Assembly (NCBI GenBank): GCA_944322935.1
Contig: CALUQO010000001.1
Location: 43,934-107,933, forward strand
Direction: 5' to 3'
Origin: Candidatus Gastranaerophilales bacterium
GTDB lineage: Bacteria; Cyanobacteriota; Vampirovibrionia; Gastranaerophilales; Gastranaerophilaceae
Length of the DNA stretch: 64,000 nt
In this document: positions 1,957 to 48,234 of the stretch, piece after piece
How the letters are laid out: every line of letters starts with the position of its first letter
Numbering within the stretch: position 1 is the first letter of the stretch
The notes under the pieces: model-generated
What the model was told of the DNA's origin: nothing
Seen by the model: the letters and a program-made list of their open reading frames with translations, nothing else
The model's database searches: none
Translations under genes and position numbers: made by a program

Positions 1957-3105
1957 CTATAAATTTATTTTTTCTGCCGGTATTATAAAAGTAAATACAC
2001 ACCCTTGTGACGGCTCGGCTTCAACAAAAATTCTGCCCTTTAAAATTCTTACAAGCATATATACAATGCCCATTTCAAGACTTTTGGCCACATTTTTTTT
2101 AGCAATATATTTATCTATATTGGCATAAGGGTCAAAAATATTTTTTAACTCAGCCTCGGAAATCCCCTTACTGGAGTCTGTTATTTGAATCATAATATAG
2201 CTTTGAGCAGGCAGGCTCTTTGATACGGTTATGCCTGCAGCCTCAAGACAATCGTCATCAGGGTGAGAAACAGCAAGCTGTATTGCGCCTGATTCCGTTC
2301 TTTCCAACGCATTATCCAAAAGCGTCTCCAGAACTTTTTTCAGAGCATTTTCGTCAGAATAAAGAGTTCGTTTGGTCAGGCTGTTGAGATTAAAGTTTAA
2401 AATAATTTTTTTCTTATCGGCATTTTCTTTGTATTTGTTGAACATATTTGTCATCATTGTGACAAAATCAAAGTTTTTGAATTCGTAATCATACATGCCG
2501 GATTCTAATTTTGAATACTCAAGAATACCGGTGATAAGTTCAAGCAGCTGGACAGAATTTTTGTTAATTATCTTTAAATACTTTTGCTGTTTTTCATTTA
2601 CGTCACCTCCGAGCCCTTCGAGTATAGCTTCGGAAAAACCGTTGATTGAGTGCAGCGGCGAGGTTATTTCATTCGATACCTTTGTCAAAAAAGTGCTTCT
2701 GTTTTTATTGAGTTTTGTAATGTATTCATGTTCAAACATGAGTTTGTTGAGCATTTTTTTGTTATTTGTTACATCTCTTACGGAAATAATTATTTTGTCT
2801 TCTCCGTCATCGTATTGCGAGGCTCTTATTTCCACAAAAATTTCCGTATCTTTTTGCAATTTTAATTTTACTATTGCGGAATCGTTCGATTTTGTAAGGT
2901 TATTGACAAGGTTAAAACCGCCGTCAAATATGTCGATTAGCTCAAGATTAAACAGCTCGTCACTGGATATGTCCAATATATTAAGCAGGTTTTCATTTGC
3001 ATACAAAAGTTCGCCTGACGCTGAAACAACAAGTATTGCATCAGGATAATAACTTAAAATATTTTTTTCTTTTTTGGGTTTAAAAAACCAAGATAAAATG
3101 TTCAT
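1957..3105 (-). CDS. PAS-domain histidine-kinase-like protein with degenerate catalytic motifs
   Basis: It has an N-terminal PAS-like region, a DHp-like segment FLTKVSNEITSPLHSINGF and an HATPase-like C-terminus (N-box LLDNALERT). The canonical H-box His position is Asn, and the G1/G2 boxes read DSSKG / SLEMGI. Confidence 0.8.
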   Translation of the reverse strand: MNILSWFFKPKKEKNILSYYPDAILVVSASGELLYANENLLNILDISSDELFNLELIDIFDGGFNLVNNLTKSNDSAIVKLKLQKDTEIFVEIRASQYDDGEDKIIISVRDVTNNKKMLNKLMFEHEYITKLNKNRSTFLTKVSNEITSPLHSINGFSEAILEGLGGDVNEKQQKYLKIINKNSVQLLELITGILEYSKLESGMYDYEFKNFDFVTMMTNMFNKYKENADKKKIILNFNLNSLTKRTLYSDENALKKVLETLLDNALERTESGAIQLAVSHPDDDCLEAAGITVSKSLPAQSYIMIQITDSSKGISEAELKNIFDPYANIDKYIAKKNVAKSLEMGIVYMLVRILKGRIFVEAEPSQGCVFTFIIPAEKINL

Positions 3106-3287
3106 AAGTATAAAAAATCCCCTTAGTTCATAATCCTTTGACCATATTTAAATCTTTACCGGAATAATCTATATACTAACATAATATGAGCTGTGAACCA
3201 AAGTAAATTTTTTATGCAAAATATCAACTAAAATTTGTATTAATAAGCAATTGTTGAAAATGCTATAATTATCCTTATAAGGAATTT

Positions 3288-5372
3288 ATGGACATGAGTA
3301 ACAATTTTGACTACAAAGAATTTGCAAAAAGCCTGGAAACTCAATGTGTTGAGCTTATTCCCGCTGAATTTTGCACACAGGATAAAGACTACATAATTCA
3401 AAAAGTGTATGATTTTTCTTTGATGGCAGGTGAAGCCTTGTGCAATGACGACGTTTTGAACATTGACGCTCAATCAAAAGTGCTTATTGCACAAATGATT
3501 GCTGAATGGGCTTTTCATAAATCATGCGACCTCATCAGGGCAAATATTCCGGCACGATATCGTGATGAAATTTTGCAAAAAATCGCATTTGCGGTTTTTG
3601 AAGTCGCAAAACAAGGTTTTACCCAAAAAGTTCCTCAGAGGGACATTCTTAACTTAGCTGAATATCACGTTAATAAAACCTACAAAGAATGTATAGAAGA
3701 CCTGACTAAAAGACACATTATCAGCCAAACTGATGCGCAAAACGCCCTGTCTTTATCAAACATTGATGAAATGGCGGCAAAAGAATCGGCTTCCCGAAAG
3801 CGCAAAAGCTTTATAACAGTTTGTTCGGATCTCTTTTTCGGCATAAAAGTTAAAATAAAAAATACGGCAGAAAAACTTAAGGAATCTGCTGCTGCTTATT
3901 TTTCAAATATATTTACCTGGATAATAATATCCTTTGCCATAGCGTTAGGTCTGCTGTTTTATTTCAAACCCGCTCAAAATATATTGGATGAAATTACAAA
4001 ATTCGGTCTTAGCAGCGCAATAGCAATTGCTGCTTTTTTAATAATATTCAACACCTTTGTTGATTCAGAAAGAAAATTTTATAAAAAAATAAATATAATT
4101 GCAGGCGGAATTTGTGCAATAGTAGCTTTTGCATTGTTGAGTGTATCCATTTACGGAATTTTTGCGGGCTGCAATTTTTACGTTCCCTGTTGGCTAACAA
4201 TAACAATAAGCGTGTTCTTGGGAATTTATTCCTTCAAAATTCTAATTGCTGTTGATATTCAAACACAGCTGGAACAGCTGGAGCAAATACGTCAAAAAAT
4301 GCAATATATGTCAGCCCCTAATGTCATGTATGAAAGCCTCGGTGTTGATGTTATGGAAATTCAAATAGGCGCAGGGCTTTTGCCTGTTGCAGACCCTGAT
4401 GCCGGCGGACAGTTACCTGCCAAAAATGCAGCGCTAAGACAACGCCTCACTGATGAACTCGGGTATATTCTGCCATCAATAAGGATTCGTGATTTTGCAC
4501 AGCTGGACGCCAATGAATACTCGATTATTATAAGAGGCAGCGAAGCAGCTTCCGGCTTTGTGTATCCGGACAGATATATGGTGCTTGCACGGGAATGGGA
4601 AACAAAATGTAATACAATTCCGGAAGATGCAATAATTTCAGCCGCTCCGGAAGATAAATCCCCCTGTTACTGGCTGAGGGAACAAGATTTAAAAAACGTA
4701 AAAAACATCACCGCAACAAAACCCGCAGATGTAATAATAAACCATTTGAAAAAAATAGCAATAGAAAACGTTGACAGTATATTAACAACTGCCGATGTAC
4801 TTAAATACCTTGAACTTGCTATTTATGACGAACAAATTACACTGGTGCAAAGCTTGCGCGACAGGCTGCCGGTGGAAGATATAAGAAAAATATTCGTAAA
4901 CCTTATCAGAGAAGAAGTGTCAATAAAAGACGTTATGTTTATTGTTGACAGACTGAACGATTTTGCCAGATTCTCAAAATCTCCGGATGTTCTCTCCGAA
5001 CAATTAAGAGGTGTTATGGCACGCAAAATTTGTCTAAAAAACTGCGACAGGGACAAAGTGCTTTACTCTGTAACGATTTGCGAAAAGTATGAAAAAATAC
5101 TCTTAAAAAGCATTGAAGAAAGACAACAGTATATCACTTTCAACCTTAGTACCGATTTTAAATTTGAACTTATAGAAAATACGGGAAACGCAATGCTAAA
5201 AGCACACCAAATTGTCGGAAAACAACCGGTGATTCTCTGTCCGTCAAAAATCAGACTACCGCTATTCAGACTCTTAAAAGACTATATTCCTGCGGCAGTT
5301 GTTATCTCTTATGAGGAAATTGTTTCCGATATAAAAACTGAAACAGTAGGAGAAATTAAGGAAAATATATAA
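3288..5372 (+). CDS. membrane protein with FlhA/SctV-type C-terminal cytoplasmic domain and a non-FHIPEP N-terminus
   Basis: aa ~350-694 match the FlhA cytoplasmic domain by eye along its length: LGVDVMEIQIGAGLLPVADPDAGGQL, LGYILPSIRIRD, YSIIIRGSEAASG, VSIKDVMFIVDRL, PVILCPSKIRLPLFRLL. aa 1-205 are soluble with no recognizable family, and aa ~206-321 contain about 4 TM helices. The conserved FHIPEP TM core motifs are not visible. Confidence 0.8.
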   Translation: MDMSNNFDYKEFAKSLETQCVELIPAEFCTQDKDYIIQKVYDFSLMAGEALCNDDVLNIDAQSKVLIAQMIAEWAFHKSCDLIRANIPARYRDEILQKIAFAVFEVAKQGFTQKVPQRDILNLAEYHVNKTYKECIEDLTKRHIISQTDAQNALSLSNIDEMAAKESASRKRKSFITVCSDLFFGIKVKIKNTAEKLKESAAAYFSNIFTWIIISFAIALGLLFYFKPAQNILDEITKFGLSSAIAIAAFLIIFNTFVDSERKFYKKINIIAGGICAIVAFALLSVSIYGIFAGCNFYVPCWLTITISVFLGIYSFKILIAVDIQTQLEQLEQIRQKMQYMSAPNVMYESLGVDVMEIQIGAGLLPVADPDAGGQLPAKNAALRQRLTDELGYILPSIRIRDFAQLDANEYSIIIRGSEAASGFVYPDRYMVLAREWETKCNTIPEDAIISAAPEDKSPCYWLREQDLKNVKNITATKPADVIINHLKKIAIENVDSILTTADVLKYLELAIYDEQITLVQSLRDRLPVEDIRKIFVNLIREEVSIKDVMFIVDRLNDFARFSKSPDVLSEQLRGVMARKICLKNCDRDKVLYSVTICEKYEKILLKSIEERQQYITFNLSTDFKFELIENTGNAMLKAHQIVGKQPVILCPSKIRLPLFRLLKDYIPAAVVISYEEIVSDIKTETVGEIKENI

Positions 5373-5467: not shown

Positions 5468-6196
5468 ATGAAAATTAATAATACAATACAGCGCAGAACT
5501 TATTACACTCGAAGTAATTGTAATAAATCATCTTCAAACAAAAATTTCAAAGGACGTATGTTAACCGGCCCAAAATTGTCACGGCTTGGTTCTGTGTCTT
5601 TTTTAACTTCTTTAGCCGGACAGGGGGTTGCTTTCTGCACAGGCAGCTTCACTGTTGCATTGGGTTCTGCCTGTTTAAGCGGCATCGGTATTTTAGCGGA
5701 AACGCTTGGTATGTTTGTCAAAAACGGAGAGCTGCTCAAACTGAAAAAACATATTGATTGGGTAAAATCAAAAAATATTGAAGAGGCTGCAAATTTTGCT
5801 CAACAGAATTTTAAAATAAGAAATTTTAAAGTGAATGACCTTGATACCGCAAACTGGATAAACGAAGGTTTGACAAAAATAAGTAATAAATTTCAAGGAA
5901 AAACATATATGCCCAGAGAAATTAAACTGGAACCTCTGGATTGGTGCGAATATAATCCTGATAACGGCGGGGTGGGTGCTTTATATGACCGTGCGGCAGA
6001 TGGCATAACATTTAACCAAAATGCATATAAGGGGATTGACAAAAGGTTAAAAAACTATTTGCAGACTACATCTCTGTTTGAAGATGATTTTATATCTGTT
6101 CCGGGGACGGAAAATATTGATAATATTTACGATGTGCTGGAAAAGTATAAAACAAATCCTTCTTTACTTACAAATCCTGAAAAATTATCACTGTGA
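5468..6196 (+). CDS. hypothetical membrane-associated protein; 5' portion of a gene interrupted by an in-frame TGA
   Basis: 242-aa ORF. It has an N-terminal polar leader MKINNTIQ...NFKG, then a hydrophobic Gly/Ala-rich segment. It ends at TGA 6194-6196, in the same frame as the next ORF with no other stop between them. Confidence 0.6.
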   Translation: MKINNTIQRRTYYTRSNCNKSSSNKNFKGRMLTGPKLSRLGSVSFLTSLAGQGVAFCTGSFTVALGSACLSGIGILAETLGMFVKNGELLKLKKHIDWVKSKNIEEAANFAQQNFKIRNFKVNDLDTANWINEGLTKISNKFQGKTYMPREIKLEPLDWCEYNPDNGGVGALYDRAADGITFNQNAYKGIDKRLKNYLQTTSLFEDDFISVPGTENIDNIYDVLEKYKTNPSLLTNPEKLSL

Positions 6197-6253
6197 TCAT
6201 CTCTGACAAGAAGATTCGACATATACTACCAGATTGAAACACAGCCTGAAAAA

Positions 6254-6589
6254 GTGTTGGATTATTTAAAACAATGCCTTTCGGAAAATAAACCGGACAG
6301 CCATATGTACGGTAATATTAATTACAACAAATTCGATTACCTGTTTCATGAAATGGGGCATATGATAGATTTTAAAACACAAACCCCGTATTTCGAAATT
6401 AAAAATAAAATCAAAAATTCCAAAGTTTTTGAAAAACAGATAGATTCTATGGTAATCCCTCAAAATGCGGCAAAAAATAAAAGTGAATTTATTGCGGAAA
6501 TTACGTCGGGTCAATTAAACGGTGATACTTATCCGGATGTAATAATGAAACTGTTTAACAAAGTTTGTAATATCAAAATTCCGCAATAA
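6254..6589 (+). CDS. HExxH zinc-metallopeptidase-like fragment; 3' portion of the interrupted gene
   Basis: Contains LFHEMGHMIDF (HExxH). It is in the same frame as 5468..6196, and the only in-frame start is a GTG with no convincing RBS. Confidence 0.5.
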   Translation: MLDYLKQCLSENKPDSHMYGNINYNKFDYLFHEMGHMIDFKTQTPYFEIKNKIKNSKVFEKQIDSMVIPQNAAKNKSEFIAEITSGQLNGDTYPDVIMKLFNKVCNIKIPQ

Positions 6590-8676: not shown

Positions 8677-9117
8677 ATGGATATATTTAATGCTTGGCAG
8701 CTCTGGTGTATAGCGGGGGTTGTGTTTTTTATTATAGAAATGTTTACGCCGGTGATGTTCTTTTTTAATCTTGCACTTGCGTGTTTTATAGCTGCAATAT
8801 GTGCTGCTTGCGGGATTTTGCCAATTGTTCAGGTAATAATTTTTGCGGTATTCTCCGTAATATTTTTAATCTGGCTCAGACCCGTGCTTGTAAAATATAA
8901 AAACAAACCCGAAAACGAAACCGTAGATATGTATGTCGGCAAAGCTGCAAAAGTTTTAAAAACAGTTACAAAAGACGGCGGACGTATTTATATTTTTGAT
9001 GAAGAATGGCCGGCTGTATCTCTTAACGAAAATGACGTGTTCAATGAAGGTGAATTCGTTATTATTGAAAAAACAGAAAACATGCTTATGTATGTTAAAG
9101 GAAAGAATGCCGGTTAA
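8677..9117 (+). CDS. NfeD family membrane protein
   Basis: Two to three N-terminal TM helices plus a C-terminal OB-like segment (VGKAAKVLKTV...GRIYIFDEEWPAVS...FVIIEK). It sits immediately upstream of SPFH genes, which is the classic NfeD-SPFH pairing. Confidence 0.85.
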   Translation: MDIFNAWQLWCIAGVVFFIIEMFTPVMFFFNLALACFIAAICAACGILPIVQVIIFAVFSVIFLIWLRPVLVKYKNKPENETVDMYVGKAAKVLKTVTKDGGRIYIFDEEWPAVSLNENDVFNEGEFVIIEKTENMLMYVKGKNAG

Positions 9118-9638
9118 TGTGTATAGTTTTTGTCGAAAAAAATGAAGAAATAATTGTGGAAAAATTCGGAAAATTCCACAGGAAACTAACCGAAGGTGTT
9201 CATTTTTTGCTGCCTTTTGTGGAAAAAGTCAGAGGACTGCAGGATCCTGCAAATCCTAAAAAATTTATTAATAACGGCAAAATTAAAACACCCGAAGAGA
9301 TTTTTTATTTTCCGAAAGACGACAGGATTTTCTTTGCAAAAGATAAGTCCCAATTGCAGATGAGGGCTGAAATTACATATAGGATTGAAGATTCATATAA
9401 AGCCGTATATGAGGTGGATTATTTGTTTGATGCAATTAATCAGCTTTGTGCCGGTATTATACAAAGCAGGCTTTTAGATGCACCGGACGGGGTTGAGCAG
9501 ATAGAATATCTTCACAAACTTACCCAAAATGTGATAGAAACTGCAAATGAATATTCTCAAAAATGGGGGGTAAAAATTTTAAAATTTGAACTCAAACAAA
9601 TTACTGACACTAACGGAGTAAGACAAAATTTTGGATAA
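9117..9638 (+). CDS. short SPFH/band-7 domain protein lacking a TM anchor
   Basis: IVEKFGKFHRKLTEGVHFLLPFVEKV matches the SPFH N-terminal core. The start overlaps the nfeD stop (TAATG). Confidence 0.7.
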   Translation: MCIVFVEKNEEIIVEKFGKFHRKLTEGVHFLLPFVEKVRGLQDPANPKKFINNGKIKTPEEIFYFPKDDRIFFAKDKSQLQMRAEITYRIEDSYKAVYEVDYLFDAINQLCAGIIQSRLLDAPDGVEQIEYLHKLTQNVIETANEYSQKWGVKILKFELKQITDTNGVRQNFG

Positions 9639-9672
9639 GTAATAAGTATAAGTAAAAAGAAAAGGAGAGAAA

Positions 9673-10686
9673 ATGGGAATTTTACTAATTGTATTACTGG
9701 TATTGATAGTATGCTATTTCCTTGCGGGTATCAAAATTATTCAACAGGAAGAAGCAATGATTATTGAAAGACTCGGGGCTTTTGAAAAAGTTCTTTATGC
9801 GGGATTTCATTTGATTATACCGTTTTTTGAATATCCCCGTAAGATTCAATGGAAAGATACACAAAAAACTCCGGACGGAAGAACATACTCTTTCTATTCG
9901 GAAAAAACTGTTATTGACCTTCGTGAATCCGTAATGGACATCCCAAGACAAAACGTAATCACAAAAGATAACGTGTCAATTTCAATTAACGCTTTGATTT
10001 ACTTCCAGATTATGGATGCAAAAAGCGTTGTTTACCGCATTCAAAACCTGCCCGAAGCAATCGAAAAACTTACTCTCACAACAATGAGAAACGTAATCGG
10101 TGATATGGTGCTTGATGAGACACTTTCTTCCCGTGATACAATCAACGCCAAATTGAGAGAAACGCTTGATGAAGCCTCCAATAAATGGGGCGTAAAAGTT
10201 AACAGAATCGAGCTGCAGGAAATTACTCCGCCTGCTGATGTTCAAGCTTCAATGGAAAAACAGGTTAAAGCAGAAAGAGAAAAACGTGCTGCTATCTATG
10301 AAGCAGAAGGTTTGAAACAGGCTGCAATCTTAAAAGCAGAAGGTGAAAAAACCGCTGCAATCAACAAAGCGGAAGGTCAAAAACAATCAGCAATTCTTGA
10401 AGCCGAAGGTGAAAAAGAAGCTGCAAGACTTATTGCGGAAGGTCAGGCTGCAGCAAGAGTAAAACAGGCAGAAGCTGAAGCTACCGCAATCGGCAAAACA
10501 ATCGAAGCTATACAAGACCACGGTCAGCCGGATAAATACCTTATTGCAGTAAGATATCTGGATACTTTAAAAGAAATGGTGGAAGGCGAAAACAACAAAG
10601 TTGTTTATATGCCTTATGAAGCAACAGGTATATTAAGCTCTGTTGACGGTATTAAACAAATGCTTGACGGTGCTAAAGTTCAATAA
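9673..10686 (+). CDS. SPFH/stomatin-like protein (QmcA/HflK-C superfamily)
   Basis: N-terminal TM, SPFH core (IIERLGAFEKVLYAGFHLIIPFF, ITKDNV, NRIELQEI) and a C-terminal AEG-rich coiled-coil repeat. A GGAGAG RBS is present. Confidence 0.9.
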   Translation: MGILLIVLLVLIVCYFLAGIKIIQQEEAMIIERLGAFEKVLYAGFHLIIPFFEYPRKIQWKDTQKTPDGRTYSFYSEKTVIDLRESVMDIPRQNVITKDNVSISINALIYFQIMDAKSVVYRIQNLPEAIEKLTLTTMRNVIGDMVLDETLSSRDTINAKLRETLDEASNKWGVKVNRIELQEITPPADVQASMEKQVKAEREKRAAIYEAEGLKQAAILKAEGEKTAAINKAEGQKQSAILEAEGEKEAARLIAEGQAAARVKQAEAEATAIGKTIEAIQDHGQPDKYLIAVRYLDTLKEMVEGENNKVVYMPYEATGILSSVDGIKQMLDGAKVQ

Positions 10687-10708
10687 ATAAAATAAAAAAA
10701 CAACTGAA

Positions 10709-10746
10709 AAGCCTGCTTAAAAATTAATTTTAAGCAGGCTTTTTGT
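10709..10746 (+). terminator. rho-independent terminator after the SPFH operon
   Basis: GCCTGCTTAAAA / TTTTAAGCAGGC perfect stem followed by a T-run. Confidence 0.85.
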
Positions 10747-10825
10747 TAACAAAATTTACAAAAAGTCAATTTTTTTGTTGTAAATGTTTTTATAAAAATA
10801 TATAGGGATAACGGGGAGATTATTA

Positions 10826-11644
10826 ATGTTTAATTCTGTATCTTATTCAAAGGAAGCACAAAACTATTATGAATCAACGTATGCTTCTACACCAATTAAC
10901 AGCGATAATAAAGTTGCACGCTCTATAAAAAAAGGCGACAATTTATGGAATATTGCGAAGGAGCATCTTAAAAAAGAAGATGCATCAAACGCCGAAATTT
11001 TGGATATGATGTATAAAATAGCCAAACTTAACAACAAAAGCTCTATTGAAGCTGCTAACAATCTTGATGTTAATGAAATAATTTATCTGCCAGGGAAAAA
11101 TAAGCCGTCAAGCTCTAATAACCCTGTCGAAAATGCGTTTGATGTTTCGCAAAAAATTAATGATATCATTGTTCCTAAGGGCGATGCAACATATAACCAG
11201 AAAGCGCTATATCGTTTGCAGAATATAAAAAATATTCCGCAGGATTTGTATAAAGAACATGCGCAGGCTGGGGTCGGCTATTGGGACAAAACTCTGAGCG
11301 ACAAAAATAACAAATTTGTAATATCAAAATCAACTTCGTATTCTCCAGTTATTTATACAGGATTGTCTGTTATAAAGAAAGAAAATAACAATCCGTACGG
11401 CAAAACCGAAGGGCAAATGTATATAGAAGTTGATAAACAAGGACAGGTAAAAGATATTTGCTTTGAAGTACCGGGAGTAAATATTTCAGATACGAGTTTT
11501 GATTATCAACTTGACAGGGACGGTAACTTATACAAGCATACAGGATTTTTTGACAGGTATGAAAAAATAGGTCAGCTTCCGGCAGAGCAGTATCAAAACT
11601 TAATTAATCAAGCGCAGGAATATTTTGACAATAATGTCAAATAA
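10826..11644 (+). CDS. LysM-domain protein, no signal peptide
   Basis: IKKGDNLWNIAKEHL...IYLPG is LysM-like. The rest is unassigned. A GGGGAG RBS is present. Confidence 0.65.
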   Translation: MFNSVSYSKEAQNYYESTYASTPINSDNKVARSIKKGDNLWNIAKEHLKKEDASNAEILDMMYKIAKLNNKSSIEAANNLDVNEIIYLPGKNKPSSSNNPVENAFDVSQKINDIIVPKGDATYNQKALYRLQNIKNIPQDLYKEHAQAGVGYWDKTLSDKNNKFVISKSTSYSPVIYTGLSVIKKENNNPYGKTEGQMYIEVDKQGQVKDICFEVPGVNISDTSFDYQLDRDGNLYKHTGFFDRYEKIGQLPAEQYQNLINQAQEYFDNNVK

Positions 11645-11703
11645 TTCGTTGCGTAAACAAAGTAAGCTGATTATCTTACTAAAACAGATAAATACTTCAA
11701 AAT

Positions 11704-12354
11704 CTATTTGTATGCCAAAATAATTGTTGTAAGCTCATCAATGCTGTCAACAATTATTTTGGCATCATGTTCTTTAAGAAAAATTTTATCTTTGTACCCC
11801 CAGCTTACGCTTATACAAGGGATACCTGCATTTTTTGCCGTTTGTACATCAACCTCAGAATCACCGACATACAAACAGCTGTTTGTACAATCAAGTTTTT
11901 GTACAATATTTAACACACCGTCCGGGCAGGGTTTTTTTCTTATACCGGTGCACTCCCCGTTAGCAATTTTTATTAAATCTCCAAAATAACGGATACACAA
12001 TTCTTTTACAGCAGAATCAAATTTGTTGGACACAACAGCACAGGTTATACCGTTTTGGTTTAACGTTTTAAGCATTTCAACAATTCCATCATATGGGCGT
12101 GTTTTTTCATACATTGTTTTTGAATAATGTTCTTTAAATATTTTCAGACAAGCCTCAAAATTAGCGTTAGCCTCTCCTTCCGGTATTGCCCGTTCAATGA
12201 GTTTGCGCACACCGTCTCCGACAAAATTTCTTATGTCATTAATATCATATTGTTTGTATCCGAAATATGATAAAGCGTAATTTGTGCTTTCCGTAAGATT
12301 TTCCAGTGTGTAAAGAAGGGTGCCGTCTAAATCAAAGATTACAGCTTTTATCAT
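11704..12354 (-). CDS. HAD-superfamily phosphatase (phosphoglycolate phosphatase-like)
   Basis: MIKAVIFDLDGTL (motif I), VVSNK (motif II), VGDSEVDVQTAKNAG (motif III/IV). Start moved to the ATG at 12354, which forms an ATGA overlap with the upstream stop. The track ORF extends 29 codons further upstream without support. Confidence 0.85.
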   Translation of the reverse strand: MIKAVIFDLDGTLLYTLENLTESTNYALSYFGYKQYDINDIRNFVGDGVRKLIERAIPEGEANANFEACLKIFKEHYSKTMYEKTRPYDGIVEMLKTLNQNGITCAVVSNKFDSAVKELCIRYFGDLIKIANGECTGIRKKPCPDGVLNIVQKLDCTNSCLYVGDSEVDVQTAKNAGIPCISVSWGYKDKIFLKEHDAKIIVDSIDELTTIILAYK

Positions 12355-13211
12355 TCCTGCCCCTTTTCTTTGAGTTTTCTGTATGCCTGAGAGTTTATCT
12401 CGCCTCCGACAAGCATCATCAAAGATGAATAATACAGCCATACCATAAGCATTACAAATGCACCGATTGAACCGTAAACCCTGTTATATGTATGCAGGTT
12501 GTTAATGTAAACTGAAAAACACCATGAGCCGAACAACCAGCAAAAGCAGAAAAACAAAGTCCCAGGCAGTGCTGCCTTGCTTTTTAGTTTATCAGATCCT
12601 TCCCATGCGGGCAGAAGAAAATAGTTTAAATATGCGGTTAAATATAATGCCATAAAAGCAAAAAACCACCGGCCAATCATAAACACCGCAATAAAAAGTG
12701 TAGACAGGTTAACAAAATTAAGTACAAACTGCAAAATCACTTTGCCGAATATAACCATGTTTATGATAATAAACAGAAAAAATATGTTAACAAATACCAT
12801 CAATACGGATATTGTCCTTGTTACGACAAGATTTCTGTGTTCCTCTATTCCAAGAGCTCGATTCATACCCTTGATTATACAAAATATAGCGTTTGATGAT
12901 AAAAACACTGTTATTATAAAACCGAAAACAGCAACTATCCCCCCGTGCTGAAAAATAAGGACTTCATTTAATACTTCTTTTATCAGGTTAACCGAATCTG
13001 TCGGGGCAACGGAATCTAAAAAATGGATAATCGGCATAAATTGCGAGCGTTTGCCAAGCAGCGTAAAAAAGGACATCATAAACAGCATAAACGGAAATAT
13101 TCCGATAGCAAACCAAAAACCCATTTCTGCCGCCATACCCATAAAATCATCAATGATAATACGGTTTATCAGATTTTTTAAATAGTTAAATGTCTTTTGT
13201 AAGAAGTCCAT
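12351..13211 (-). CDS. YihY/BrkB family membrane protein
   Basis: About 6 TM helices, conserved ...YNRVYGSIGAFVMLMVWLYYSSLMMLVGGEINS C-terminal signature. Confidence 0.8.
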   Translation of the reverse strand: MDFLQKTFNYLKNLINRIIIDDFMGMAAEMGFWFAIGIFPFMLFMMSFFTLLGKRSQFMPIIHFLDSVAPTDSVNLIKEVLNEVLIFQHGGIVAVFGFIITVFLSSNAIFCIIKGMNRALGIEEHRNLVVTRTISVLMVFVNIFFLFIIINMVIFGKVILQFVLNFVNLSTLFIAVFMIGRWFFAFMALYLTAYLNYFLLPAWEGSDKLKSKAALPGTLFFCFCWLFGSWCFSVYINNLHTYNRVYGSIGAFVMLMVWLYYSSLMMLVGGEINSQAYRKLKEKGQE

Positions 13212-46593: not shown

Positions 46594-48234
46594 TTAGCCC
46601 ATAGCCGCTACCTGCGGCTCTTCATTAAGCTTTTGCTGTTTTATTTCCGTATATTTTGACGCCGAAGTATCAGTATCTTTTGCAGTAAAGCCGATAGGAC
46701 GTCTTTTGGTTTTACCCGATGCTTTAAGATTTTGAGCAAGGTGTTTTTCCAGACCTTTTTCAAAATCCTGCGATGTTAAAACAAGATTTTTAATATCGTT
46801 TGTATCGAAGGTGCCCTGCTCAATTTTGTCAAAAACCCCCAATCTGTCGTATGCGATATCATACGCATTATCTATTACCTGATTTGTATCTGAACCTGTT
46901 AACTTGTTTTCATACAGCTTTTTGGCAAAATTATTTATATTGAATTTTTTCTCAACATTAACTTTTTTCAGCTGTTTGGAAAAAATATCTTTTATTCCTT
47001 CAAAATCCGGTACGGGTATTTCAATTTGTTTACCAAGCCTGCCTGCTCTCAGCACAGCATCGTCAAGGAGCTCCGGTCTGTTTGTTGTTGAGATTACAAA
47101 CACCTGATCGTTATTTTTTTCCAGATCACTGATTAATGCCAATATCTGATTAAGTTCATCAGCAGCGTATGGTTGCAGTGCGCTTCTTGTTTTGAAAACA
47201 GCATCACACTCATCGATAAGCAGAATGCTTGGCTGATTGTCAACAGCTTCTTTGAACAAGTTCCTCCAGTTGGCCTCGGTTTGTCCGACAAGCCCTCCTC
47301 TTAAAGAACCGGCGTTAATTTCATAATAATTGGCTCCCGCATCGTTTGCCAGAGCTTTGGCAACAAAAGTTTTACCTGTTCCCGGCGGGCCGTATAGAAT
47401 AATACCGTGGTTAACCTTTCTGTTTAAGAATGCCTCCGGCTTTTTTATCGGGTAAAGTATATTCTTTTTTAATTCTTTTACCACGCTATCCATACCTCCT
47501 ACATCAGCAAGTCCGAATTTGGCAGCCTGAACATCATCAAGAAAAATATTTTTAAAAGTTCTTTTATTTACGTTAACAATAGAGGGCTGAACAAATTCAG
47601 TAAAGTTGTACGGCTCGCTGAATTCGGCACGCATAAAGCTCAAATTTTCTTTAGATCTTTCTTTTACACTGAAGTGGAATTTGTTATTCAAATTAACAGT
47701 GGCTTCTGGCGTAATCCATACACCTGCTTTTTTACCAACAGCATAATTTTTCCCCTCAAGATTTGTTACAAGGATGGGAGCATTCCCCAGATTAATAAGC
47801 TCCGGCGCAACATCGCTGCGTGAGATAGCTATAGCCTCTGGGATTTTTTCTTCCGGCAGAAAAAATACTCTTTTTATAACCCTGTTAAATGCATCAATCG
47901 ATTCATTTAAAAATTTATTTGCCGTCTTTTTATTCTTAGCCGCAACTATTAAATCATTTGTATCTATGATTTCAACAAGCGAAGCAAGTCTTTCTTCAAA
48001 AGGAATACTCTTTATCACGGACGGAAGAACCTTACCGACCTGCTGCACGCCTTTGAATGAAATTTCATCACTTTTGGGTTTTACAAGCAGTCTGTTGTAG
48101 TGAATATCTGCAAGTTGAACGTTAGGAGCATTTTCCTGCTGCTTTTCCAGAGTTACGTCTTGGTTTTTGTTTGTATTATAAATTTTTTTGTATGTTTCGG
48201 GTGTAATGTAAGGCTTGATTGCTGAAATTTGCAT
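46594..48234 (-). CDS. soluble classical-clade AAA+ ATPase with a novel N-terminal region and polar leader
   Basis: Walker A GPPGTGKTF, Walker B LLIDECDAVF, sensor-1 TTNRP and arginine-finger region DDAVLRAGRL. One AAA module, no protease domain, no TM helix. The leader MQISAIKPY...ISFKG is at the N-terminus. Confidence 0.85.
   Translation of the reverse strand: MQISAIKPYITPETYKKIYNTNKNQDVTLEKQQENAPNVQLADIHYNRLLVKPKSDEISFKGVQQVGKVLPSVIKSIPFEERLASLVEIIDTNDLIVAAKNKKTANKFLNESIDAFNRVIKRVFFLPEEKIPEAIAISRSDVAPELINLGNAPILVTNLEGKNYAVGKKAGVWITPEATVNLNNKFHFSVKERSKENLSFMRAEFSEPYNFTEFVQPSIVNVNKRTFKNIFLDDVQAAKFGLADVGGMDSVVKELKKNILYPIKKPEAFLNRKVNHGIILYGPPGTGKTFVAKALANDAGANYYEINAGSLRGGLVGQTEANWRNLFKEAVDNQPSILLIDECDAVFKTRSALQPYAADELNQILALISDLEKNNDQVFVISTTNRPELLDDAVLRAGRLGKQIEIPVPDFEGIKDIFSKQLKKVNVEKKFNINNFAKKLYENKLTGSDTNQVIDNAYDIAYDRLGVFDKIEQGTFDTNDIKNLVLTSQDFEKGLEKHLAQNLKASGKTKRRPIGFTAKDTDTSASKYTEIKQQKLNEEPQVAAMG

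Follow-up and report, generated by a model that had tools for sequence, protein, structure and literature searches.

A Gastranaerophilales-specific FlhA paralogue that couples a previously unrecognised helical domain to the FlhA linker and cytoplasmic ring domain and lacks the FHIPEP export-gate core

On contig CALUQO010000001.1 of the Candidatus Gastranaerophilales bacterium assembly GCA_944322935.1, a stretch of 64,000 nucleotides (hereafter the window) encodes a 694-residue protein which, in both architecture and evolution, is almost certainly a Gastranaerophilales-specific paralogue of FlhA without transmembrane (TM) helices TM1-7 and without the FHIPEP loop. The protein joins two modules of the flagellar gene cluster, the N-terminus of a protein here called X and the linker plus cytoplasmic domain (FlhA_C) of FlhA, and adds a membrane anchor unrelated to either. 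FlhA/SctV proteins, on which every type III export apparatus is centred, carry an export-gate domain of eight TM helices, with the FHIPEP loop between TM4 and TM5. To our knowledge, the cytoplasmic ring of FlhA has been studied so far only when attached to its own ion-driven membrane engine. A first-pass annotation of the sequence had supposed this architecture to be undescribed, and full-text literature searches indeed gave no description of an FlhA/SctV cytoplasmic domain without the FHIPEP core, of the N-terminal domain or of X, and public sources offered no name for proteins that combine this domain with FlhA_C. What is new here is the domain architecture and its lineage-specific radiation within the FlhA/SctV family, together with a previously unrecognised domain.

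Homology to FlhA starts at about TM8 and the linker, where the alignment shows DIQxQLxQLExVRQ...MYERLGVD, and runs colinearly with E. coli FlhA through the linker and domains D1-D4 to the C-terminus. The Pfam profile PF00771 (FHIPEP) matches protein positions 290-682 over profile positions 266-656 of 657 (E=2.5e-60; 205 bits against a gathering threshold of 29.1 bits), and the B. subtilis FlhA_C structure 3MIX is matched by residues 332-690 over positions 25-380 of its 382-residue chain (E=2e-38). Such colinearity from the linker to the C-terminus had been proposed at first reading on the basis of four peptide strings, all of which occur in the translation, and the profile searches make the similarity highly significant. 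Vibrio FlhA (7AMY) matches at E=7e-30, Helicobacter and Salmonella FlhA also match, and SctV proteins are more distant. TIGR01398 (FlhA) aligns protein positions 284-690 with profile positions 279-678 at 202 bits, against an equivalog cutoff of 772 bits, and TIGR01399 reaches 110 bits against a cutoff of 692. Since P0039 and P0052, canonical FlhAs from the same clade, cover FHIPEP profile positions 2-656 at E~1e-218, the partial match is a property of the window protein and not of the profile. Identity of the window FlhA_C is 52% with its canonical Gastranaerophilales counterparts and 22.5% with that of E. coli, so the duplication took place within the lineage and the gene was not imported.

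The N-terminal half tells a different story. Residues 1-340, scanned alone against Pfam, gave no FHIPEP match, and the TM block (residues 190-325) compared with 94 canonical FlhAs by phmmer gave only E>1. By hhalign, just the last helix aligns (window ~298-324 with canonical 301-327, E=0.14), and this helix is plausibly the counterpart of FlhA TM8; neither program detected homology of the anchor to FlhA TM1-7 or to the FHIPEP loop. Between them, Pfam scans of the separate halves, phmmer and hhalign rule out a divergent FHIPEP core, so that the absence of this core, already suspected in the first-pass annotation, is upheld, as are the roughly four TM helices that it placed behind a soluble N-terminal region, here by hydropathy. 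Counts of lysine plus arginine in the loops (9/2/4/0) fit an N-in/C-in topology under the positive-inside rule, which would put the N-terminal domain and FlhA_C both on the cytoplasmic side.

The soluble region in front of the anchor (the N-domain) is predicted to be an all-helical bundle, modelled with AlphaFold2 from 13 family members. It is marked by the motifs FDYKxFA, AEWxFHKSxDLxR, QKIAFxxFE and SNIDxMA, and by 14 invariant columns in alignment A2, including W74, K78 and R84. The domain has no Pfam, PHROG or PADLOC match, and a Foldseek search of its model against the PDB returned nothing at E<=1e-3, the best match being a designed helical bundle (E=0.07, TM-score 0.33). Known folds such as a FliS/FlgN/FliT-type chaperone or FliG_N were considered and rejected on this Foldseek result, in which the top matches were designed bundles. 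A word-index search recovered only 2 proteins with the domain, versus 377 clusters (315 at E<=1e-10) when 1.84 billion cluster representatives were searched exhaustively with a profile, and many of these clusters are proteins of ~310-370 residues with the domain at their N-terminus. The window open reading frame (ORF) matches this profile at E=5e-76, its own sequence being part of the profile.

The first-pass annotation had been unable to place this soluble region; it corresponds to the N-terminus (the first ~170 residues) of a conserved protein of ~345 residues, X, whose gene lies between fliF and fliH, next to canonical flhA. The window protein is thus a reshuffling of modules from the flagellar cluster and not an FlhA_C transferred to a foreign scaffold. 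When six-frame ORFs were searched with the N-domain profile, X was found as a same-strand ORF of ~320-375 residues upstream of canonical flhA in 70 of 77 loci (E-values 1e-61 to 1e-73), and in the other 7 the contig ends before the X position. The window N-domain is ~41% identical to those of X. In one annotated example the gene order is fliE, a 152-residue protein, fliF, X (343 residues, no Pfam match), fliH and flhA; further examples of X are P0129, P0131 and P0135, the gene at 8197-9228 of L095, and those at ~7200-8400 in L013-L088 (e.g., 7219-8298 of L014). E. coli FliE, FliF and FliH queries match homologues in 39, 43 and 70 loci, respectively, and E. coli FliG has no match in the same loci by phmmer or jackhmmer. 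X stands at the position of fliG in E. coli and is the size of FliG. Its model (predicted local distance difference test score, pLDDT, 87.7) has two domains joined by a disordered linker; it shares the N-domain with the window protein but has a helical C-terminal domain in place of TM helices and FlhA_C.

X was tried as a recognisable FliG and rejected as such: in addition to the phmmer and jackhmmer searches, a profile search against the PDB gave no match, hhalign to E. coli FliG gave a probability of 1%, and Foldseek found nothing at E<=1e-3. The Pfam families that recur among 27 X proteins are all sub-threshold (MgtE_N in 12, FliG_M in 6, FliG_N in 5, FliG_C in 2), and where coordinates were reported these FliG/MgtE_N signals lie C-terminal of the N-domain, which has no FliG signal itself by Pfam or Foldseek. 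X is probably FliG-like but very divergent, and its N-terminal domain is new.

Which surfaces of FlhA_C have been retained can be read from an alignment with E. coli FlhA covering 40 canonical FlhAs of the clade and 51 paralogues, in which residues are given in Salmonella/E. coli numbering. The FlhA_C nonamer is stabilised by E351/W354/D356 in the linker, R388/R391/K392/K393 and F400/L401 in D1, and E508/Q511/L512/R515 in D3 (PMC5916509). In D1 and D3, the window protein matches the canonical FlhA of its clade at 9 of 10 of these ring contacts, the sole change being Y at the L512 position; this match is relative to the clade, and compared with E. coli R391 is the only identical ring-contact residue. 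In the protein's own numbering these contacts include R384, Q385, R386, Y393 and I394 in the first part of D1, which also has a GxxLL counterpart of the GYXLI motif, and D503, K506, Y507 and L510 in D3. Across the paralogues, R391 is kept in 50/51, Y400 in 49/51 and K511 in 48/51. The linker residues M347, Y348 and E349 align with E. coli W354, N355 and D356, and this M-Y-E state is that of the canonical clade and of most paralogues. The fold-core residues D361, G368, L371, R391 and H491 (the last being H486 of the window protein, in the second part of D1) are all kept.

The chaperone site has fared differently. D456/F459/T490 belong to a conserved hydrophobic dimple between D1 and D2 that docks FlgN/FliS/FliT-substrate complexes (PMC8166844). 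The equivalents are D/Y/T in 40/40 canonical clade FlhAs, versus A/D/N in the window protein, and across the 51 paralogues the D is kept in 23, the Y in 20 and the T in 16. Identity to the canonical consensus (all paralogues/window) is 0.57/0.61 for D1, 0.50/0.56 for D3, 0.46/0.50 for D4 and 0.46/0.59 for the linker, and is lowest for D2 (0.42/0.38). The residue pattern is one of ring-building surfaces kept and a late-cargo docking site released from constraint. The substrate-docking platform envisaged in the first-pass annotation is therefore doubtful for the window protein, in which none of the three dimple residues matches and D2 is the least conserved domain.

The architecture is not a peculiarity of one genome. 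Among 265 sequences in hand, 61 have one or more N-domains with FlhA_C and no core, 91 are canonical and 113 have N-domain(s) only; 51 of the core-less proteins join the N-domain to a complete FlhA_C, which bears out the reading of FlhA_C on a core-less protein and makes it a recurrent arrangement. These 51 have 0 (9 proteins), 1 (2), 2 (25), 3 (6) or 4 (9) TM segments, and P0136 is a wholly soluble N-domain plus FlhA_C protein. The first-pass annotation was thus right in seeing a different membrane anchor, inasmuch as it is unrelated to FlhA TM1-7, but this anchor does not define the family: given the variation from 0 to 4 TM segments it is optional, and the constant core is the N-domain, the FlhA linker and FlhA_C. 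Homology searches recovered full-length relatives at 95, 77, 49-43 and ~36-40% identity to the window protein, among them P0001 (95%), P0002 from L010 (77%) and the proteins of L011 (49%) and L012 (42%). In a scan of GTDB species-representative genomes, of which the best 80 of >525 relatives were considered, the relatives came from Gastranaerophilales/Melainabacteria metagenome-assembled genomes (MAGs) of human and other animal guts. Three of these MAGs, CALVAN01, CALUSA01 and CALVCQ01, have full-length orthologues, and the gene is also carried by GCA_002309425.1 and by the bin with ERZ16268073 scaffold_59. As to co-occurrence with canonical flhA in one genome, canonical FlhAs saturated the scan and the three MAGs were not seen again among those best 80, which is uninformative at such sampling. 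In a neighbour-joining tree the N-domains of X and of the paralogues are intermixed, and the paralogous FlhA_C sequences form a paraphyletic set around the canonical ones, which cluster tightly. A single origin of the fusion was considered and set aside, as neither tree is robust enough for counting fusion events.

Family members vary in composition as well as in their anchors. Besides forms with fewer TM helices, there are a tandem N-domain protein (780 residues), one with two N-domains and a matrixin domain (928 residues) and a fusion to a FliI-like ATPase (1037 residues). The last of these, P0026 (L004 1-23114, gene at 10001-13114; also L005), has the order N-domain, TM helices, FlhA_C and FliI-like ATPase, and lies among ~24 co-directional genes, 20 of them without a Pfam match, which include a second, truncated FlhA_C protein (340 residues). 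P0211 (1139 residues) is a soluble version with a matrixin-like N-terminus. In the FliI-like domains of P0026 and P0211, the Walker A motif GSGVGKS has become ENGCGAS and QSGCGLS, respectively, and with the lysine lost neither should be able to hydrolyse ATP in the usual way.

Several loci hold more than one such gene. At 5652-12343 of L006/L007, a 6.7-kb stretch holds three FlhA_C-related genes, all on the same strand and the first two separated by a TPR gene: the first (412 residues) has a divergent N-terminal region, TM helices and just the start of FlhA_C, the second (444 residues) has TM helices and FlhA_C without an N-domain, and the third (P0012, 780 residues) has two N-domains, TM helices and FlhA_C. 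The surroundings comprise TPR, M48 peptidase, VWA, LemA and TPM genes. At 2148-4579 of L090, a 572-residue gene with N-domain, TM and FlhA_C, in which D2 is apparently missing as judged by eye, is followed by an overlapping 237-residue N-domain plus TM gene, so that N-domain and FlhA_C occur here in fused and in split form side by side. Next come genes for a hybrid histidine kinase and for a response regulator. In 3 of 9 loci a paralogue is flanked by two-component genes, among them the divergent PAS kinase of the window.

Selection on the gene was assessed from the ratio of nonsynonymous to synonymous differences (pN/pS) between window positions 3294-5372 and positions 10001-12079 of the same-species contig L001, a comparison of small numbers. 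The paralogue has a pS of 0.052, like the adjacent kinase and ABC genes, and a pN of 0.023, versus <=0.004 in nearly all flanking genes. Its pN/pS is 0.43, against 0.00-0.14 in the flanks, with the exception of Band7a at 0.61, and 7 of the 32 amino-acid changes fall within the 35-residue linker. The gene is under purifying selection and is clearly less constrained than its surroundings.

The explanation that we prefer overall, although our confidence in it falls somewhat short of even, is that the protein forms a membrane-tethered, non-transporting FlhA_C ring that serves as an accessory or regulatory platform. The mechanistic part of this proposal is more tentative. The window protein itself would not translocate substrates, because it lacks the membrane elements of the export engine and has no fliPQR/flhB partner genes alongside. 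Through its linker-D1/D3 contacts it may assemble an FlhA_C-type ring just beneath the inner membrane, either alone or mixed with canonical FlhA_C, with the N-domain and the ring both facing the cytoplasm. The kept surfaces (linker, D1, D3 and D4) and the X-type N-domain would then bind general cytoplasmic partners of the export apparatus, that is, FliJ/FliH-FliI-type proteins and whatever the N-domain of X binds, rather than FliS/FlgN/FliT-type chaperone-cargo complexes. Its role would be an accessory, holding or regulatory one, possibly as a subunit that modulates or poisons the gate ring.

The platform may have originated by duplication of an X-fliH-flhA(-fliI) segment that later collapsed into one reading frame. 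X and flhA are separated by fliH alone in the canonical cluster. The order fliH-flhA-fliI has been reported for ACD20 (PMC3787301), and this order, together with the FliI-like domain that follows FlhA_C in some paralogues, fits such a duplication and collapse, as do the members in which this domain is catalytically dead.

Several observations weigh against an accessory or regulatory platform at the gate. Of nine Gastranaerophilales genomes, 6 lack a complete flagellar gene set and 3 have one (Soo et al. 2014, PMC4040986), and in a host without an export apparatus the protein could play no regulatory part at the gate. In the loci inspected, the window-type gene never adjoins flagellar genes. 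FlhA_C identity is 43% among paralogues versus 96% among canonical proteins in our sample, which would be unusual for a subunit of a conserved machine. At least 5 unannotated gene families are common to the clusters around the paralogues of L004 and L006, which points to a separate system, and the view of X as FliG-like draws solely on gene position and recurrent sub-threshold matches.

Much of this would sit well with an exapted, flagellum-independent system, in which docking rings built of N-domain and FlhA_C were recruited to another, non-flagellar machine of the membrane or the cytoplasm and the variable D1-D2 cleft selects new, lineage-specific cargo or clients. This sharper form of the first-pass reading is the main alternative, which we nevertheless regard as somewhat unlikely. 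The placement of the gene outside flagellar clusters, the conserved clusters of unannotated genes around other subfamilies, with the families common to L004 and L006, the presence of up to three FlhA_C genes in tandem and the fusions to matrixin, TPR and a dead ATPase all speak for it. So do the concentration of diversity in the docking dimple and D2, the fast evolution of the family with a pN/pS above that of the flanks, and the fact that many Gastranaerophilales keep just a subset of the flagellar genes (PMC4040986). However, the window copy stands alone, as do its orthologues, enolase synteny aside, and nothing nearby encodes a candidate membrane channel. A protein of the canonical flagellar cluster has the same N-domain, and the ring contacts track the state of canonical FlhA, which would also permit co-assembly with the canonical gate.

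A combined form, in which an "operon collapse" of X-fliH-flhA-fliI gave rise to a flagellum-independent family of cytoplasmic ring scaffolds in gut Melainabacteria, a new type-III-derived module exapted and devoid of transport and motor activity, strikes us as unlikely. If it is true, the ring scaffolds could serve the holding or processing of clients with fused or neighbouring metalloproteases, and their persistence in non-motile lineages would explain the "subset of flagellar genes" of non-motile Gastranaerophilales.

It is very unlikely that the gene is a decaying flhA remnant left after the loss of flagella, a fusion on its way to becoming a pseudogene. Flagella loss is documented in the order (PMC4040986), constraint is relaxed relative to the flanking genes, the chaperone site is lost, and the adjacent downstream frame has an in-frame stop and a 479-bp deletion in other strains. 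Against decay, the ORF is intact at 692-708 residues across many strains and species, and is unbroken in >20 contigs; pN/pS stays below 1; the N-domain with its invariant W74, K78 and R84, the linker, D1 and D3 are conserved across relatives of 36-95% identity; and the fusion architecture has been kept in at least 51 divergent members.

That the protein is an ordinary, very divergent full-length FlhA whose N-terminal half escapes profile detection is highly improbable: its 694 residues do equal the canonical length (about 700) and MAFFT sets the four TM helices roughly opposite TM5-8, yet in residues 5-168 the helices form a soluble bundle (pLDDT 90) and do not span the membrane, the N-domain occurs alone, in tandem and in non-FlhA proteins, phmmer and hhalign see no similarity to TM1-7, and for canonical FlhAs of the clade the match extends along the full profile. 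An assembly or binning chimera of an X-like gene and an flhA fragment, conceivable for a metagenomic source in which the two modules come from neighbouring genes of the canonical cluster, can be practically dismissed, as the same ORF stands on at least 9 independent contigs (different samples and assemblers, up to 185 kb) with conserved flanks, and orthologues occur in three GTDB MAGs.

Features of the gene are listed in Table 1. A second ATG at 3294 would give a 692-residue form and is the start used by close relatives. The promoter candidate has 10/12 matches and ends 19 nt 5' of the ATG; promoter-like sites are not enriched in the region (14 observed versus 18.6 expected from shuffled sequence). 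No record of the exact window protein was found, and its canonical relatives carry the label "FHIPEP family type III secretion protein".

Table 1. Position of the FlhA paralogue in the window and of its parts (D1-D4 boundaries are approximate; those of the first part of D1 are taken from E. coli 362-434)
Feature	Position	Strand	Residues	Remarks
Sigma-70-like promoter candidate	3240..3269	+		TTAATA-18-TATAAT with extended TG; best match, weak evidence only
Whole ORF	3288..5372	+	694 residues	Stop codon included
N-domain	3300..3791	+	~5-168	Cytoplasmic all-helical bundle; AlphaFold2 pLDDT 90.4, 7 helices
Basic spacer	3792..3908	+	~169-207	9 K+R; cytoplasmic side before TM1
Membrane anchor	3909..4253	+	208-226, 241-258, 270-294, 299-322	4 predicted TM helices (hydropathy)
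FlhA linker (FlhA_L equivalent)	4254..4349	+	~323-354	DIQTQLEQLEQIRQKMQYMSAPNVMYESLGV; 59% identical to clade canonical consensus
FlhA_C D1, first part	4350..4568	+	~355-427	From alignment
FlhA_C D2	4569..4721	+	~428-478	Least conserved; D456/F459 equivalents A/D
FlhA_C D1, second part	4722..4781	+	~479-498	T490 equivalent N485
FlhA_C D3	4782..5021	+	~499-578	Strongly conserved motif RKIFVNLIREEVSIKD
FlhA_C D4	5022..5357	+	~579-690	Colinear with FlhA to the C-terminus

The surroundings of the gene are not flagellar. By Pfam, no flagellar genes occur in the 64-kb window or in ~10 kb past each end, as covered by same-species contigs; E. coli FliE, FliF, FliG, FliH, FliI, FliJ and FlhB queries have no match in the window, and injectisome genes are likewise absent. 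Pfam annotation of the window and its flanks yields only housekeeping and signalling genes, plus a few short ORFs without a Pfam match. The neighbours are a divergently transcribed PAS histidine kinase (1957-3105), an ABC ATPase and an interrupted frame with an HEMGH motif, and further on an SLT transglycosylase and SPFH/NfeD proteins (an NfeD-like gene and two SPFH/Band 7 genes at 8677-10686, + strand), followed by housekeeping genes. A LemA gene lies directly upstream of the window start on same-species contigs, and LemA and TPM genes also adjoin the L006 paralogue. For the 546-residue protein at 46594-48234 (- strand), Pfam on the same-species contig L094 gives an AAA domain and, weakly, nSTAND3 (STAND NTPase). 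The window subfamily has no conserved operon partners: its orthologues in L010-L012 (42-77% identity, three species) are stand-alone genes beside enolase, the only conserved neighbour.

The interrupted frame at 5468-6589 (+ strand) consists of ORFs of 242 and 111 residues that form one 373-codon frame with an in-frame TGA at 6194-6196. The HEMGH (zincin-like) motif is in its second part, and neither part has a Pfam match. On the same-species contigs L001, L098 and L099, genes of 102 and 94 residues are called at this frame, and relative to L001 the coordinate offset indicates a 479-bp deletion in the first part. The frame is probably a decaying gene. FlhA_C paralogues are recurrently found near metalloproteases (the fused matrixin, the neighbouring M48), which may or may not be related to the HEMGH frame.

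A defence-system or phage origin of the gene was considered and rejected. PADLOC gave no match to the window protein. The PHROGs profile phrog_12657 (function unknown, profile length 579) matches through its positions 220-574 to residues 333-686 (E=4e-33) and so covers FlhA_C only. A phage genome collection returned only three matches, all weak (23-27% identity) and all in unannotated records, namely fecal contigs and a fragment of 3.3 kb, which are probably bacterial flhA genes within phage-labelled records.

Compared with known systems, the window protein is most similar to FlhA (Salmonella/E. coli; 3MIX; 7AMY), and closest to that of Gastranaerophilales, in its colinear linker and D1-D4. 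It differs from FlhA in its extra N-terminal helical domain, its three changed dimple residues (3/3) and its non-flagellar gene context, and without TM1-7 and the FHIPEP loop it would have no ion or proton pathway and no surface for contact with FliPQR-FlhB. SctV (YscV/InvA/MxiA/EscV) belongs to the same C-terminal fold family but is much further away (CdsV/LcrD E=2e-16, InvA 2.8e-8, MxiA 1.1e-7), and the window protein lacks the SctV membrane core too. The chlamydial FlhA is a full-length FHIPEP protein. The orphan FlhA/FliI/FliF of Chlamydia pneumoniae likewise include an FlhA-family protein outside a complete flagellar set, with no role known (PMC2830194); the window protein differs from it in lacking the core and in carrying a new domain.

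The family is limited to one order and its function is inferred, not proven. It nevertheless represents a natural separation of ring from engine, in which the determinants of the ring have been kept and the cargo-docking cleft has varied, and it could be used to test what an FlhA_C ring does alone and whether FlhA_C can serve as a regulatory or poison subunit. The flagellar cluster of this widespread gut lineage contains an uncharacterised domain and, at the FliG position, a protein missed by standard profiles; automated annotation would probably take genomes that carry X to lack FliG. For gut Melainabacteria, a PF00771 match is no evidence for an export gate, and some of the "partial flagellar gene sets" reported for non-motile members may be due to such paralogues.

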